Source: an uncultured Nitrospiraceae bacterium (lineage in GTDB: Bacteria > Nitrospirota > Thermodesulfovibrionia > Thermodesulfovibrionales > Dissulfurispiraceae). Taken from it: 64,000 bases of DNA. Shown piece after piece: positions 2,855-12,121 of the stretch (its first letter is position 1; the number at the start of each line of letters is the position of its first letter). The notes under the pieces are model-generated. The model was not told the origin of the DNA and ran no database searches. It was given only the letters and a program-made list of their open reading frames with translations. The position numbers and the translations under genes are program-made. The stretch spans positions 2,368,001-2,432,000 of the forward strand of contig CAVSHF010000003.1 in assembly GCA_963727805.1 (NCBI GenBank). Reading direction: 5' to 3'.

Positions 2855-5263
2855 TTATTCTTCGACGACCCTGCCCATGCTGACAATCCTATCTTCAGGA
2901 TCCAGATCCATGAGCTTAACTCCCTGGGTATTTCTTCCTAAAACTGAGATGTTCCGGGTAGGCATTCTGATCACTTTGCCGCCGTTTGTAATAAGGACAA
3001 TCTCGTCTTCGTCTGTCACGCGAATAAGGCCTACAGCGTTCCCACCCTTTTCGACAACCCTGATTGAGATGACGCCCCTACCTCCTCTGCCGTGAACAGG
3101 ATACTCTTCAATATTTGTCCTCTTTCCGAGTCCCTTTTCCGTTACCGTCAGAAGGGACGTCCGCTCCTCAATAACATTGGCTGAAACGACGCCGTCCCCT
3201 TTGGTAAGCCTGATTCCTATGACGCCGCGCGCAGTGCGGCCCACTGACCTGACATCTTCTTCATTGAAACGGATGGCAAGACCTTTACTGGTGCCAATAA
3301 CAAGATCGCTCTTGCCGGAGGTTCTGTTCACGGAGATCAACTCGTCTCCCTCATCGAGAGTGACGGCGATGATGCCTTTTGAGCGCGGGTTGTTGTACTC
3401 GTCGAGTCTCGTCTTCTTCACTATCCCGGCCTTTGTAAACATGACGAGGTAGCCGTCCTTGAAGTCCTTGACACTGATGGCCGTCGATATCCTTTCACCG
3501 TCTGCCAAGGGAAGAAGATTTACAAAGGCCTTTCCTTTAGCCGTTCTGCTGGCCTCAGGTATCTGATACGTCTTCAGCCAATACAGCCTTCCGAGATTGC
3601 TGAAAAAAAGCATATAATCATGGGTCGACCCTATAAAAAGCTGCTCGACGTAATCCTCTTCGCGCGTCTCCATTCCGGTGAGCCCCTTGCCGCCACGGCG
3701 CTGACTCCGATAGGTCGAAAGAGCTAATCGCTTGATATAGCCGTAATGCGTAATTGTTATGACCATCTCCTCTTCGGTGATGAGGTCTTCGATGGTAAGA
3801 TCGGCGGTTTCGGGGACGATCTCGGTCCTTCTCTCGTCCGCGTATTTCGTCTTGATCTCGATCAGCTCGTCCTTGATGATCTGCGAAACAAGTGCCTCGC
3901 TCTCCAAGATGGCCTTAAGACGCTTGATCTCATTGAGTATCTCTTCATAGTCTCTGACTATCTTTTCCCTTTCAAGTCCGGTCAGTCTCTGGAGCCTCAT
4001 ATCGAGTATAGCCTGTGCCTGGATAACCGAAAGAGGGTATTTCTCAATGAGGCCGGCTTTCGCTTCATCAGGGGTCTTCGCCTTCCTGATCAGTGCTATG
4101 ATCTCGTCGAGATGGTCAAGGGCGATCTTGAGGCCTTCCAATATATGCGCCCTCTCTTCGGCCTTTCTCAACTCAAAGCGCGTCCTTCTGATGACAACAT
4201 CCCTGCGATGGCGGAGGAAATATGTAAGCATCTCGTTGAGTTTCAGCACACGGGGCTGGCCCCCCACAATGGAGAGCATGATAATACCGAAAGTGGTCTC
4301 CATCTGAGTGTGCTTATAGAGATTGTTCAGGACTACCTGAGGCACTTCGCCTCGCTTCAGTTCGAGGACTACCCTGACGTTTTCGTCGCGGTCAGATTCA
4401 TCACGTATGTCAGATATGCCTTCTAGCCTCTTTTCCCGGACGAGTTCGGCTATCTTTTCGATCAGCCTCGCCTTGTTCAGCTGATATGGTATTTCAGAGA
4501 TGATGATGCTGTCGCCGCTCTTGGCTTCCCTTTCGATCCGGGCCTTTGCCCTCACCTTTATAATTCCCCTCCCGGTGGTATAAGCGTCAATGATGCCCTG
4601 GGTCCCGTGAATGACAGCGCCCGTCGGGAAATCCGGCCCCTTGACTACAGCAAGCAGTTCGTTGATCGTCGTTTCGGGGTTATTGAGGAGCATGACAAGG
4701 CCGTCAATGACTTCTCCGAGATTATGCGGAGGTATATTCGTCGCCATTCCGACAGCTATACCTGAGGCCCCGTTGATGAGCAAGTTAGGTATCCTGGAAG
4801 GAAGGACAGCCGGTTCTTCAGTGGTCTCGTCGAAATTGGGGATGAAATCTACAGTCTCCTTTTCGATATCGGCAAGCAGTTCCTCGGCTATTTTTGCCAG
4901 TCTTGCCTCGGTATACCTATACGCAGCAGCTGGGTCGCCGTCTAAGGAGCCAAAATTCCCCTGTCCGTCAACAAGGGGATATCTCATGTTGAAGTCCTGC
5001 GCAAGCCTGACCATTGCATCATAGACGGCTGAGTCGCCGTGGGGATGATATTTCTTCAGAACCTCTCCAACAACTCCAGCGCTTTTCGAATATTTCTTAT
5101 TCGGGAGGAGACCCTCTTTATACATCGCATAGAGGATCCTCCTTTGGACTGGTTTAAGGCCATCCCGCACTTCGGGTAGAGCTCTCCCGATGATTACGCT
5201 CATCGCGTAATCGAGATAGCTGACTTTCATTTCTTCTTCTATACTTATTGAGACTCTCGACAT
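2855..5263 (-). CDS. gyrA: DNA gyrase subunit A
   Basis: [31 protein letters not shown], GyrA-box QRRGGKG. Confidence 0.98.
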
Positions 5264-5646
5264 TTTATTAAAGACCCCTTCTCTTGAGTTAAAAAATTAC
5301 CTTATATTTTACCACATTACCTGCATATTATTATGATTATATTGACTTTCATTGCTAAACTGGTAAGGACCGATCAACAAAAAATATGCCACATATGCTT
5401 TAGAAACGAGCGTATATTAAGTCAGTAAAGCATAGCGTCAGAGATGTAACTGAAATATTCTCTCTATTGGTCGTGTGGATATCGCAATTGCCCACCGCAC
5501 TGGCGATCAGGAGAAGTGCATATAGTCTGCCATAGTTAGGCGGCAAACCTATAGCGCAGAAGGAAAGGATTGGTACACTCTTCCAGATTCCGCGAGAGCG
5601 TAAGGAAAACAGCACTGCATCACGCCCGACTTGCATGTCACTGCCG

Positions 5647-5813
5647 CTTATGCGTCCGGAATTGAAGTTTATGCGTCAACCGATAACATATATATGGGAT
5701 GGCGGATAAGCTGCAATTTCCCCTATATGTAAATCAACGACTTGCAATTTATTTTGGCGCATAAGGGGCTAAAAAGGTGGTAGCTTGGCGCATAAGATGC
5801 AATTTTCTGAAAT
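5647..5813. repeat. Composite repeat site, copy A (5 motif copies, junction, IHF box)
   Basis: Reverse-orientation motifs at 5647-5658 and 5668-5679; forward TTGGCGCATAAG-like motifs at 5699-5710, 5754-5765, 5785-5796; AATCAACGACTTG at 5732-5744. Confidence 0.85.
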
Positions 5814-5919
5814 ACACGCATATCCGGACAATCTGTGTGCATGCGAACTATAGCTTGTCGCTTCTCGATGTCTTTTAGGACAAAAAGAGCCTAACTATGG
5901 ATGACAATGATAACAAATC

Positions 5920-6591
5920 TTACTCAGGTGATCCCGGCTCTTCGGCTTCTGGAACAGCTACGCCCATTAATGGCGCAAAAATAGTATTGGGCATAGAAGA
6001 TGTATTCCTATCAAGGGCTTGCTTTGGCGCAGTGCCGGCAATGGCGGCTGCGGCATCCGAATCGGAATCAGCAGTATCAGGCGTGCTATTGTCAGGCGTG
6101 CTATCCTGTGGTGTTGTAAAACCATAAGGGATATTCTTTTCATATGTCGTGGTAGTAAGTATCTGCTGAGTCTGGCTAAACGCACCCCATGTAAACACCT
6201 CTTCCCCTTTGTGCAGACGTACTGACCAGTTATAACGCGTGTCAGGCATCAGACGCTTTTTAACCTTATGATAATTAACAGTCAGGTTCTGTACACAGTA
6301 GGCAGGTTTTCCCCAACTCGTAGTGCGATATTGTGATATTGACAATCTGGGGCCAACAGGTTCGGGGGTCCAGATGCACATATCGTAGGTTTGGTCTTCC
6401 TCTCTTATATCTTTCCATTGCAATACAGGCTGCAATGAATCAACAACAGGATACTTATCACTATATCCAAGCTCAGGATATAGTGGTCTGGGGCTGTAGC
6501 TGTGATAAATCCTGTGTTCTACGCTGCATCCTGCAGTCATGCTACTTATTATCAGAGCAGCCAAGAAGACTGCCTTATAACCATGTTTCAT
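5920..6591 (-). CDS. Putative lipoprotein of unknown function
   Basis: Signal peptide ending MTAG-C; beta-rich core; low-complexity D/S/T/P/A tail with short tandem repeat DSTPDNSTPD. Confidence 0.75.
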   Translation of the reverse strand: MKHGYKAVFLAALIISSMTAGCSVEHRIYHSYSPRPLYPELGYSDKYPVVDSLQPVLQWKDIREEDQTYDMCIWTPEPVGPRLSISQYRTTSWGKPAYCVQNLTVNYHKVKKRLMPDTRYNWSVRLHKGEEVFTWGAFSQTQQILTTTTYEKNIPYGFTTPQDSTPDNSTPDTADSDSDAAAAIAGTAPKQALDRNTSSMPNTIFAPLMGVAVPEAEEPGSPE

Positions 6592-6631
6592 GGTGCCCCC
6601 CCTAACTAGGATCGGCCAAAAAGCATTGCAC

Positions 6632-6817
6632 TTTATGCGTCAATTTATTGCAACTTATGCTTCACCCGATAAATATCGGTTGAAGCATAAGATGCTTTTT
6701 CCACTCTATAAAAAACAACGACTTACATTCGCAGTTGGCGCATAACGCTGCAATGAATTGGCGCATATGGTGCTAAAAAGCGGGTGAATTGGCGCATAAG
6801 CTGCTTTTTTCTGGAAT
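6632..6817. repeat. Composite repeat site, copy B (6 motif copies, palindromic junction, IHF-like box)
   Basis: Reverse motifs 6632-6643, 6654-6665; junction CCGATA-AA-TATCGG 6666-6679; forward motifs 6680-6691, 6735-6746, 6758-6769, 6789-6800; AAACAACGACTTA 6713-6725. Confidence 0.88.
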
Positions 6818-6907
6818 TAAACTATTAATAAAATTACGGGTTATGCCATCCGAACTACTTCAGAATTGCGAGTCCTTAGCAGTTAATCCTGAGCTGCATG
6901 TCCATCA

Positions 6908-7315
6908 TTAACCTATGGCGCTTACAGAAACGAACAGTCGCTCAGGGTGAGATAGGTTATTGAACATTGCTTTCGGAGCATACAGGTAGTATTGGTGACC
7001 TTCAAGTATAGCCACATATCTAATTGAATTTTTTTTCACTTCATTCAAATCATATTCCCAAAAATCGGATCCAGTCCGAGATGGGATAGTGGTTTTCAGA
7101 GAATCTAATTCTGCTTTTGGTAGATCGGTCTCCGTTATCGTTAGCATAATTTTCTGAGGCCAATTGTTATTTACCTTCATATCTGATAAACGTTGCTTGG
7201 GGGCGTAGAAACTAAACTGCCTGCCCGTATACTCCCACAAATACTGGATAGTTTTTTCATGATCTTCGACATAATCAAGTTCAAACTGAATTGGGCCTTT
7301 CCATTCTTTAGTCAT
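6908..7315 (-). CDS. Hypothetical protein with internal two-fold repeat
   Basis: 135 aa ORF, GAGGAG ribosome-binding site upstream; two I-x-Y...G-x-Q...YAPK...P units. Confidence 0.75.
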   Translation of the reverse strand: MTKEWKGPIQFELDYVEDHEKTIQYLWEYTGRQFSFYAPKQRLSDMKVNNNWPQKIMLTITETDLPKAELDSLKTTIPSRTGSDFWEYDLNEVKKNSIRYVAILEGHQYYLYAPKAMFNNLSHPERLFVSVSAIG

Positions 7316-7407
7316 GGATACACTCCTCTGTTATTAGACAATCATCAACTTTACCAACCTAGATGAACTCGCATCCCACTGGTAGAGGGCGGTGTTAGAC
7401 ATATTGT

Positions 7408-8232
7408 TTATATTCTAAACCACGGTTTATGGTCCCACGGTATTAATCTGCCCCGTTCATTAGCCCGAAAACTCGATAGGAGCCGTCGCTTAAATTTTCC
7501 CCACGGCCCTTTATGTTTCCCTTTGAGTTTTTCCAGTAATTTTAATCTTATTCTTACGTCCAATGAATCAATAATGTCTTGGGTTGCGTAGTGTGCACAT
7601 CGCGTTGGATAAAATTCCGCTGCATAGGTATCGTCATAAGCAAGTTGCGATAGTTGGGTAGCAATAGGTTGCACATTCAGCGCAGCCACGAATAGGCTTC
7701 TTTTCTCAGAGTTGCGATCTTGAACTGACCGGAATCGTTGAGATTTTCTATAATCACGCTGCAGCGCCGCCTGCCTTTCGCTTTCCTCTTTTTCAGAAAG
7801 TCCTATTCGAATCGCTTCATTGTGTCGTACCTTCTTGCTTCTATACTCCAAAAGTGAACTCGAACCGTAATTTTGTGTACCAAAAGGCACATAAGGATTA
7901 TTAGTGTGTGCTAATAGCCAGTCTGCCAGAATGTCAGCGATTAACGTATCCCTTTCTTGAACTGCCCGAAAGATCCAAATTACCGCCGAAACCGAGCCAC
8001 TTGCCCAGCCATCACAATTTACTTCCATGAAGGTAAGACCCTTCGCTAATACAACAATATCTTCGACTTGAAGTTTGTCAGTAACTTTGTTCCAGTCGTT
8101 CCAATGCAATCTATTGAGTCGTCCGTGCGGTCTCATAATTCCCACAATATTCTCTATATTGTCTTTGGATGCCGCATCGTTGACAGCTCGGCCAATCGTC
8201 ATAAGATTTTCAATGAATTGTTTTTTAATCAT
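7408..8232 (-). CDS. Hypothetical protein
   Basis: 274 aa ORF, ATGA overlap with upstream nuclease gene; charged central helical segment. Confidence 0.8.
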   Translation of the reverse strand: MIKKQFIENLMTIGRAVNDAASKDNIENIVGIMRPHGRLNRLHWNDWNKVTDKLQVEDIVVLAKGLTFMEVNCDGWASGSVSAVIWIFRAVQERDTLIADILADWLLAHTNNPYVPFGTQNYGSSSLLEYRSKKVRHNEAIRIGLSEKEESERQAALQRDYRKSQRFRSVQDRNSEKRSLFVAALNVQPIATQLSQLAYDDTYAAEFYPTRCAHYATQDIIDSLDVRIRLKLLEKLKGKHKGPWGKFKRRLLSSFRANERGRLIPWDHKPWFRI

Positions 8233-8762
8233 TTTTTATCTGATTTATTTGCTATTGCCCTGATTTTATCAGTAATGTTTTCGACATATGGTGAGTCAAG
8301 TAGTTTGGGCTTTGCAACAAATACCCATTTAGGAGGAGAATCCTTAGGTTCTGTATAGTTGGCGATCTTCTGAAAATCGGAATGGGAAATTTTCATAGCA
8401 TATTTAACACCCATATCTTCATCGAAGACTATGTAAATCAAGTAGTCGAATGTCTTAGCAGCAATGATTGAGTGCTTTATATACGTCATTGGTACCCTGG
8501 ACCCTTCGAAAATGCGGCCTTTAACTTCAATTCGATCTCCAGAGGCCAGTGTCAAGTCGCGGCCTTCTTTGGCATTGGCCATCCGCGACCCATTAAAGGC
8601 TGTAGCGGCTAAATACTCTGCATACTCTCCAACGGGACTCCCTTTAGATTTTGAAACACCAAGCTTGCTCAGCGCTTCTTTAAGGTAGCGATCCAGAACC
8701 ATGATTTCATTTGGCTCCTTAATTCCGTCTATCATTCTTTTTATTTCTTCTATTTTGCTCAT
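8229..8762 (-). CDS. Putative PD-(D/E)XK restriction-endonuclease-like protein (DUF6998-like)
   Basis: GEYAE ... GRD ... IEVK spacing typical of the PD-(D/E)XK active site; FDYLIYIVFD strand. Confidence 0.7.
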   Translation of the reverse strand: MSKIEEIKRMIDGIKEPNEIMVLDRYLKEALSKLGVSKSKGSPVGEYAEYLAATAFNGSRMANAKEGRDLTLASGDRIEVKGRIFEGSRVPMTYIKHSIIAAKTFDYLIYIVFDEDMGVKYAMKISHSDFQKIANYTEPKDSPPKWVFVAKPKLLDSPYVENITDKIRAIANKSDKK

Positions 8763-8924
8763 AGTTTCACGACAAAGAATGCTGATAAATCTGTTATTTA
8801 TTTGAGATCATAAACATCCGTTTCATTAATACGTTCATTCCTTCTATCCCATTTTCTTGCAACTATAGCACATTTTTAAAATTACTTGATCAACAAATTC
8901 AGATGTTTTCCACCATAATATGTC

Positions 8925-9686
8925 CTATTTATCTGATTTTATATATTTACATCGAGGGTAATCAGCACAGCCTAAAAAAGATGATCCTACATGGACACCT
9001 CTTTTTGCTGTTCTTTGGACTAATTGTCCTCCACACTTAGGGCAAGTCGTCTTCGACTCATACCTGTCTTTTATTGATTCCATATGTGCCTCATAAGTAA
9101 GTGACTTATCATTTTTGACCGATAACAGCTTTGCAGTATACTCTTCAACTTGCTTCTCCGTAAGAATTTCCTGTTTGAATTCTCTTATATATGGAACGAT
9201 CCCACTGTTTAGCACATTAGGGGGCATTGGGCTTTTAAATGTGCAGTCCCCAATGAAGAATATAACTGGATACAGCAAACTGACGTCAATATTGAGGAAC
9301 TCCACTAGGCATTTAATATGTCGGTAATTCTGTTTGAGTGGGTTTTGAAATCGGCTTTTATGCCCATAAATGCTTTGTGTCCACTGTGAATCTTGGGCAT
9401 CCCCAAATATCCAGCCATTAATGTTCTTAGTCTCAACAACAAAAATCCCGTATTTTGAAACCACTATGTGGTCTATTTGTGTTGTCCCATCGGAAGCATT
9501 AATAATAACGTCATCTATACGATGGTATATATTGCTGTCCAGTGCCAGCCACATGCCAGCTGAAACGACTTTTTCACCGGCCCAGCCTTTTCCTTTTTTT
9601 GATTTTAAAAAATAGATTAGTATGAAAGCCGCGAATAGGAAAAGAAAAAAGGGCCACTGGGTTAAAATACCTTTTATTATTGCCAA
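8925..9686 (-). CDS. NERD-domain nuclease with C-terminal topoisomerase-type C4 zinc ribbon
   Basis: N-terminal TM helix, GWAGE, TTQIDHIVVSKYGIFVVETKN, FQNPLKQN, CPKCGG...FLGCADYPRC; TTG start. Confidence 0.93.
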   Translation of the reverse strand: MAIIKGILTQWPFFLFLFAAFILIYFLKSKKGKGWAGEKVVSAGMWLALDSNIYHRIDDVIINASDGTTQIDHIVVSKYGIFVVETKNINGWIFGDAQDSQWTQSIYGHKSRFQNPLKQNYRHIKCLVEFLNIDVSLLYPVIFFIGDCTFKSPMPPNVLNSGIVPYIREFKQEILTEKQVEEYTAKLLSVKNDKSLTYEAHMESIKDRYESKTTCPKCGGQLVQRTAKRGVHVGSSFLGCADYPRCKYIKSDK

Positions 9687-9703
9687 ACCTATAATATAAC
9701 TAA

Positions 9704-12121
<2,418 letters not shown>

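Follow-up and report, generated by a model that had tools for sequence, protein, structure and literature searches.

The closest described relatives of the locus reported here are Tn7-like transposons. The I-F3 systems Tn6677 (VchCAST) and PseCAST have asymmetric ends with repeated TnsB sites, and passages of PMC10201428 locate an IHF site in the left end of Tn6677, between its first and second transposase sites. The same passages describe terminal positions 1-3 and the TG dinucleotide as essential in Tn6677, while an excerpt of PMC13598128 reports that PseTnsB R443 contacts dG2. Tn7 uses TnsABC with TnsD to insert at attTn7, 3' of the essential gene glmS, with fixed distance and orientation, right end first, and with a 5-bp duplication. 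A parE-targeting family, which includes Tn7017 and Acinetobacter elements encoding TniQ proteins of ~486 aa and ~170 aa, is described in passages of PMC11014353, PMC11406308 and bioRxiv 2020.07.02.184150; its insertion is protein-guided and lies just 3' of a type II topoisomerase B-subunit gene. Excerpts of PMC11014353 further report that Tn6022 has inserted repeatedly at the comM gene of A. baumannii.

The window, that is, the whole 64,000-nucleotide stretch analyzed here, contains two composite motif arrays, sites A and B, which are stacked non-autonomous Tn7-like ends at gyrB and not a new recombination system. A search allowing up to three mismatches places the motifs of site A at 5647(-), 5668(-), 5699(+), 5754(+) and 5785(+), and those of site B at 6632(-), 6654(-), 6680(+), 6735(+), 6758(+) and 6789(+). 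Five further isolated matches, each with three mismatches, lie within 5201-9800. All 11 copies claimed in the preliminary description were thus located (five in site A, six in site B), and the geometry it proposed was recovered on measurement. The reverse pairs are spaced by 21 bp in site A and 22 bp in site B, the last two forward motifs are 31 bp apart in both copies, and the spacers measure 7 nt in A (ACATATA, 5686-5692) and 2 nt in B (AA, 6672-6673). The claimed IHF boxes are present at 5732, exact, and at 6713, with one mismatch, relative to the consensus WATCARNNNNTTR as quoted in a passage of PMC10201428. The exact 12-mer motif has three copies in the 3.89-Mb genome, all inside the two sites. 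A weight-matrix scan of the genome returned 235 matches above 11 bits, among which sites A and B are the only multi-site clusters and four other motif pairs are self-palindromes. Motif density in the window reaches five matches (two mismatches) per 200 bp, compared with at most two in 30 Markov resamples; the arrays are beyond chance. Public contigs of sequencing run X1, which could be the source sample, are identical to window positions 5304-5694 and 5690-5840, and because they match without a difference, site A is no assembly artefact.

The preliminary description missed the location, which places the arrays in the gap between gyrB and gyrA, with the 3' end of gyrB as the putative attachment site. 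gyrB (9704-12112, minus strand) was identified from the open reading frame list, Pfam analysis of its homolog in relative G013 and the survey described below, and gyrA (2855-5263, minus strand) from the open reading frame list. The locus adjoins dnaN and dnaA. The two genes are 4.4 kb apart, and the stretch between them has a GC content of 35-47% versus ~50% in the flanking genes; in G006, a genome of the same genus, the gap is 37 bp. The stacked elements account for the split of gyrB from gyrA in this lineage. Read from gyrB, the order is stop codon, TTAGT, TATAT, R0, four cargo genes, L_B, 2 bp, R_B, lipoprotein gene, L_A, TATAT GT and R_A.

Inspection of this order from the gyrB side begins with TATAT on the minus strand (9694-9698, +6 to +10 past the stop), the gyrB-side copy of a candidate 5-bp duplication. 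R0 (9670-9693, minus strand) is a possible decayed right end with TATAGG at +11; it is weak, scoring -5.1 bits (near the 99th percentile among control stops), and overlaps the start of the first cargo gene. That gene encodes a 253-aa NERD nuclease with a zinc ribbon (8925-9686; Pfam PF08378, E 7e-30, and PF01396). It is followed, likewise on the minus strand, by genes for a predicted methyl-directed type II restriction enzyme of 177 aa (8229-8762; PADLOC mREase_II, E 3.5e-21), which is a stand-alone defence candidate, a 274-aa protein without a Pfam, NCBIfam or PADLOC match (7408-8232) and a 135-aa protein with a sub-threshold Pfam match only (6908-7315). The left end L_B (6674-6817, plus strand) has a TATCGG terminus, motifs at 6680, 6735, 6758 and 6789 and an IHF box at 6713-6725. 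A 2-bp spacer (6672-6673) separates it from the right end R_B (6626-6671, minus strand), which has a TATCGG terminus at 6671 and motifs at 6654 and 6632.

R_B opens a 979-bp middle mini-element, the cargo of which is an open reading frame for a predicted 223-aa lipoprotein (5920-6591, minus strand). Its signal peptide and lipobox were judged by eye, and the protein is possibly Ig/FN3-like, with ESM Atlas feature neighbours (0.85-0.93) providing a lead only. The left end L_A (5693-5813, plus strand) closes the mini-element with a TATGGG terminus, motifs at 5699, 5754 and 5785 and an IHF box at 5732-5744. Beyond it lies a 7-bp spacer (5686-5692), in which the candidate duplication has its distal copy (5688-5692), and then the right end R_A of an older element (5641-5685, minus strand; TATCGG terminus at 5685, motifs at 5668 and 5647). 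A partner left end for R_A was not found in the genome. A promoter and terminator scan gave results at chance level. The region upstream of gyrA (5264-5340) is common to relative G004 (L024 10649-10725) and contains, by eye, an extended -10-like element, which is consistent with gyrA having its own promoter after separation from gyrB.

BLAST of 5600-6850 gave matches in 5 of 40 relatives, all of them to the motif arrays, and no match in these 40 to the gene between the arrays. Database taxonomy places the relatives in Nitrospirota, family Dissulfurispiraceae, which we take to belong to the order Thermodesulfovibrionales. In these genomes the array halves stand alone. In one type, a terminal hexamer and a first motif precede an IHF box, and additional motifs lie at +55, +78 and +109; in the other, a terminal hexamer is accompanied by two to three motifs 21-22 bp apart. 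Because the Tn6677 left end carries its IHF site in the corresponding place in passages of PMC10201428, the halves were named left (L) and right (R), respectively. Across 12 aligned left ends the IHF core is invariant and the gap is retained, with a mean column identity of 64%. The ends are therefore asymmetric and carry multiple transposase sites, as in other Tn7-like elements.

Complete arrangements in relatives reveal what the halves enclose. R-L minis of 253-355 bp lie immediately 3' of gyrB in G003 and G004. G013 shows gyrB, a right end at +13 (starting 12 bp past the stop), cargo, tnsA-tnsB-tnsC-tniQ/HTH and a left end, beyond which a 10-bp spacer leads to a second R-L unit, a junction as in the window. 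Its TniQ has a C-terminal HTH_17 domain and is interrupted by one TAG; an intact 636-aa homolog is present in G430. In G347, tnsABCD is accompanied by a left end that terminates in TATCGG and contains an IHF box; the right end and attachment gene of this element were not found within the 57 kb examined. tns genes accompany this end family in G013, G347, two further loci (L095 and L153) and Azospirillum, and the target selector in relatives is a TniQ-HTH_17 protein of 636-735 aa. The abutted right-end/left-end junction suggested in the preliminary description is thus borne out by halves that occur alone and bound tnsABC-tniQ elements, and the copies beside a DDE transposase that it proposed seeking with a weight matrix in the genome and its relatives exist, since halves flank tnsA-tnsB-tnsC-tniQ in relatives. 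Its analogy to Tn6677 architecture also holds: the best structural-database matches of a cognate-type TnsB, that of locus L118, are PseTnsB (E 7.5e-68) and Tn6677 TnsB (E 1e-63).

The window itself lacks tnsA, tnsB, tnsC and tniQ between its ends. The only tnsABC-tniQ set of this genome (G000), on contig C5, was ruled out as cognate helper by a TnsB only 24-29% identical and a different end motif, so that no cognate transposase was found in G000 and the window elements are now stranded. An exact left-end pattern occurred in 2 of 401 genomes across the phylum, although this pattern is too strict and missed known copies (for example, in G007). A TnsB search of genome contigs gave two loci only, TnsD protein searches gave 2 of 68 family genomes (7 of 68 for the TniQ family), and L118-clade TnsB was present in 1 of 151 genomes of the order. 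A 10-row TnsB tree supports only the grouping of L118 with G013 and G430 and the pair of P. putida and R. solanacearum; it is unreliable for G000, Azospirillum and A. wuhouensis, which have long branches, and the Azospirillum row is an arbitrarily trimmed open reading frame.

Comparison with the described systems yields both likeness and difference. Like Tn6677 and PseCAST, the family has asymmetric ends with repeated TnsB sites, and the IHF box stands between the first two left-end sites. Unlike them, the window termini read TAT, the target is gyrB, the window elements are without tns genes, the selector in relatives is the long TniQ-HTH_17 protein, and no cas genes were noticed by eye in the open reading frame lists. 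The parE-targeting family shares protein-guided insertion behind a topoisomerase B-subunit gene; here, however, the target is gyrB in a dnaA-dnaN-gyrB context with a single TniQ-HTH, and neither insertion 3' of parE nor the paired ~486-aa and ~170-aa TniQ proteins are found. An A. wuhouensis plasmid element, put in the parE family by protein lengths only, is 28-32% (TnsB) and 20-24% (TniQ) identical to the gyrB elements. Fixed distance and orientation, an essential target gene and right-end-first insertion are shared with Tn7, as is, for part of the family, a 5-bp duplication, whereas its TnsB is distant (E 3e-16), its site motif and target are different, and the gyrB elements wobble over 6-15 bp across hosts, a range set by the search pattern. 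Passages of PMC11014353 on Tn6022 offer a parallel in repeated insertion and composite capture readable from target duplications; Tn6022, however, disrupts comM and uses TnsF, while here gyrB stays intact and the shells are non-autonomous and 250-1000 bp long.

To define the attachment site, 46 genomes of the family were searched, 45 of which gave a gyrB match, and a right end was called at a terminus-plus-motif score of at least 3 bits. Right ends lie 7-14 bp past the gyrB stop in 11 of these 45 genomes versus 0 of 2115 control stops taken from G000, and G003, outside the 45-genome set, also has a right end behind gyrB. The family thus has a dedicated attachment site with fixed distance and orientation, as expected of a Tn7-like element. 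A metagenome pattern combining gyrB-like last codons with an end found 63 loci, all of them gyrB ends (62 by tblastn and one by peptide); because the pattern required such codons it favours gyrB by design, and the share of these ends elsewhere is not readable from it. The survey shows that no match was by chance, and tns genes lie within 10 kb of 4 of the 62 metagenome gyrB loci. A plasmid search by TnsD alone led to Azospirillum NZ_CP007794.1, where the element starts 7 bp past gyrB. Of 26 plasmid TnsD matches four were examined, this one included, and the other three have no gyrB among their annotated features. Ends also occur away from gyrB in G003 (two loci), G007 and G010, which together with the plasmid matches lacking gyrB implies a second route or later rearrangement. 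In G007 (L027 13185-13215) the off-site right end follows a short stretch that by eye is similar to the final gyrB codons and may be a secondary attachment site.

Other sequences occupy the same position. In G398 (L044/L069), the first 70 bp past the gyrB stop contain a second, differently patterned Tn7-type end, which starts 1 bp past the stop. Remnants of this second type are also present in G004, L118 and L141, and the TAT family is inserted inside such a remnant; two or more end families thus use the gyrB site. At L112, L126, L132, L138 and similar loci, right-end remnants lie 6-7 bp past gyrB and, by eye, terminate in an inverted repeat of the second site and then a T run, so that they look like intrinsic gyrB terminators.

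gyrB as a Tn7-like attachment site is absent from the literature searched, and parE is the published parallel. No such site appears in passages of PMC10293859, PMC8649781, PMC11014353 and PMC11406308, nor in passages of bioRxiv 2020.07.02.184150 and 2025.07.27.667033, bioRxiv supplements excepted. Likewise, gyrB or gyrase is mentioned neither in the supplements of PMC10293859, as far as these were available, nor among the PMC8649781 supplement rows listed. No paper on a Tn7-like or TniQ element at gyrB was found by title or abstract in the literature searched, and an excerpt of PMC12452197 names gyrB only as a host marker. If the gyrB site is real, protein-recognised Tn7 landing sites include gyrB besides glmS, parE, nrdB and tRNA genes, and the gyrB 3' end becomes a candidate near-universal safe harbour for integration. 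The site is used in Nitrospirota and one alphaproteobacterium, with several other lineages indicated by gyrB peptides alone. The stack also shows small defence and envelope genes deposited beside the replication origin.

Target duplications provide a record of insertion. The five bases after L recur 6-11 bp past the gyrB stop for 6 of 13 left ends, where 0.41 are expected from other loci, and none of 200,000 simulations reached six matches. At L124 the duplication is exact at both ends, and an older TAT end lies 5 bp further on. No matching duplication accompanies seven of the 13 left ends, L_B among them, and four of the six matches stop 1-2 bp before the right end now in place, which calls for later insertions, deletions or recombination. 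In the window, TATAT flanks L_A and the weak R0, with no duplication for L_B; this instance is suggestive only, since R0 amounts to a hexamer and TATAT is of low complexity. L/R spacers across loci are 2, 5, 7 and 10 bp. Repeated insertion with wobble would make spacers depart from 5 bp, and pairs would be scrambled by subsequent recombination or deletion. Contigs of four runs, at low depth, show no joints, a result that speaks neither for nor against excision.

Right ends fixed behind gyrB, together with the duplications, indicate that the window holds about three non-autonomous elements between gyrB and gyrA. We consider it very probable that in each composite site one Tn7-like element ends, with its left end, directly against the right end of its neighbour, within a transposase-less stack of about three elements likely delivered by TnsABC and a TnsD-like protein. 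Such a machine would deliver elements one after another and is predicted to recognise the last codons of gyrB. The TniQ-HTH protein would bind the gyrB 3' end, TnsC would place the insertion, right end leading, ~7-14 bp past the stop, TnsB would bind the 11 motifs, and IHF may bend the 55-bp gap of the left end. Every new arrival would shift older elements toward gyrA, and wobble could convert a 5-bp junction to 7 bp (insertion 2 bp earlier) or to 2 bp (insertion 3 bp into the previous end). The block running from R0 through its cargo, the L_B/R_B junction and the lipoprotein gene to L_A would most likely be the last arrival, entering as one composite that duplicated TATAT 2 bp ahead of R_A. 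The simplest history, given the weak R0, may be an old insertion at +13 (R_A, its left end lost) followed by this composite at +11, with the inner 2-bp junction made earlier.

The termini set the lineage apart. As the preliminary description noted, all four window termini read TAT for TGT; the terminal TG(T) of canonical Tn7-like ends is lacking, and the window ends are classed as variant. The locus contributes a Thermodesulfovibrionales lineage with TAT termini, which also occur on tns-bearing elements and beside intact duplications. TAT termini are likely a tolerated variant of the lineage, its transposase accepting TAT, rather than a dead mutation, and the TAT ends are somewhat more likely functional than not. 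We lean slightly toward the broader proposal that a gyrB-homing Tn7-like clade of Thermodesulfovibrionales has relaxed or switched the otherwise near-universal TG...CA rule and mobilises TAT-ended DNA, including single-gene shells of 250-1000 bp that form an integron-like array of cargo stacked behind gyrB.

The alternative to be weighed most carefully keeps the same Tn7-like origin and takes TAT as the product of inactivating G-to-A changes after insertion, leaving dead ends and no TAT-accepting transposase. The requirement for positions 1-3 and TG in Tn6677 (passages of PMC10201428) speaks for it, as does the predominance of TGT, which terminates 49 of 53 unique gyrB-proximal right ends, with TAT at the other four. 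Most TAT copies, moreover, were retrieved by similarity to the window's own ends, as is partly so for the 11 of 12 aligned left ends that read TAT. Those left ends nonetheless come from several unlinked loci and keep TAT despite the modest column identity given above. TAT is also present on three tns-bearing elements (G013 left, G347 left and L118 right), two of which were located through tns genes or gyrB and not through TAT, and a matching duplication lies immediately beside three TAT left ends. In the metagenome set, TAT right ends make up 4 of 5 in the window's gyrB C-terminal peptide class and 0 of 48 in the others; all four thus share the window's peptide, whereas a TAT scar behind L124, whose gyrB belongs to another peptide class, favours decay. 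The TnsB column matching PseTnsB R443 (R40, A24, P22, K14, S9, H5 and D3 of 129 rows; Asp in L118) is too variable to be diagnostic of TAT reading. Weighing these points, we regard inactivated ends as unlikely.

A TAT-accepting transposase remains our preferred account, and in G013 and the G003 mini the right end is TGT while the left end is TAT, which suggests tolerance and not a strict switch. If functional, TAT termini would depart from the terminal TG dinucleotide that is reported as the rule in Tn6677, Mu and retro-elements, and would give a handle on how TnsB reads terminal bases, possibly with an orthogonal transposase. The system would then join a natural TnsB of altered terminal chemistry to a protein-guided landing pad in nearly all bacteria.

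The preliminary description had also entertained an att/res-type site or an undescribed cassette system, and this branch of its proposal did not survive alongside the Tn7-like junction. Sites A and B would in that case be crossover sites at which the lipoprotein gene is excised by a tyrosine or serine recombinase, a reading suggested by direct repeats that bracket a single gene, by the structure of site B as a 22-bp inverted repeat with a 2-bp centre, by the IHF boxes, and by 13 tyrosine and 4 serine recombinase matches in the genome. The window, however, contains no match to either recombinase type, neighbours that the preliminary description had thought worth seeking, and in place of a fixed crossover spacer with a linked recombinase the spacers vary from locus to locus. 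Variable spacers, halves that separate and bound tns operons, and 5-bp duplications largely refute this reading, which we hold to be very improbable. Transcription-factor operators for gyrA or the cargo genes are less credible still: both clusters lie between genes and close to an important pair of housekeeping genes, but they are the only two in the genome and form no regulon, each array opens with a fixed terminal hexamer, most relatives are without arrays, and the 37-bp gap of G006 has zero motif matches.

Other mobile DNA was observed in the same genomes. The set on C5 of G000 belongs to a separate Tn7-like element (~854000-898600; L016, L029) with tnsA-tnsB-tnsC, a 426-aa TniQ, a LexA-like gene and, at each apparent end, a repeat motif of its own. 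A family of unannotated proteins with the N-terminal signature ...TYxFxAxAYNVDP... (L016 7787-9928, L023 1-4212, L025 4061-4612 and L032 5518-7005) recurs in different Tn7-like regions, twice beside a LexA-like gene; the G013 copy has no Pfam match. Finally, a 314-aa tyrosine recombinase frame is present in G000 in eight equal-scoring copies (C3 849312, 853077 and 887831; C5 25473, 395683, 418967, 434329 and 562181) and is probably a recently active mobile element.
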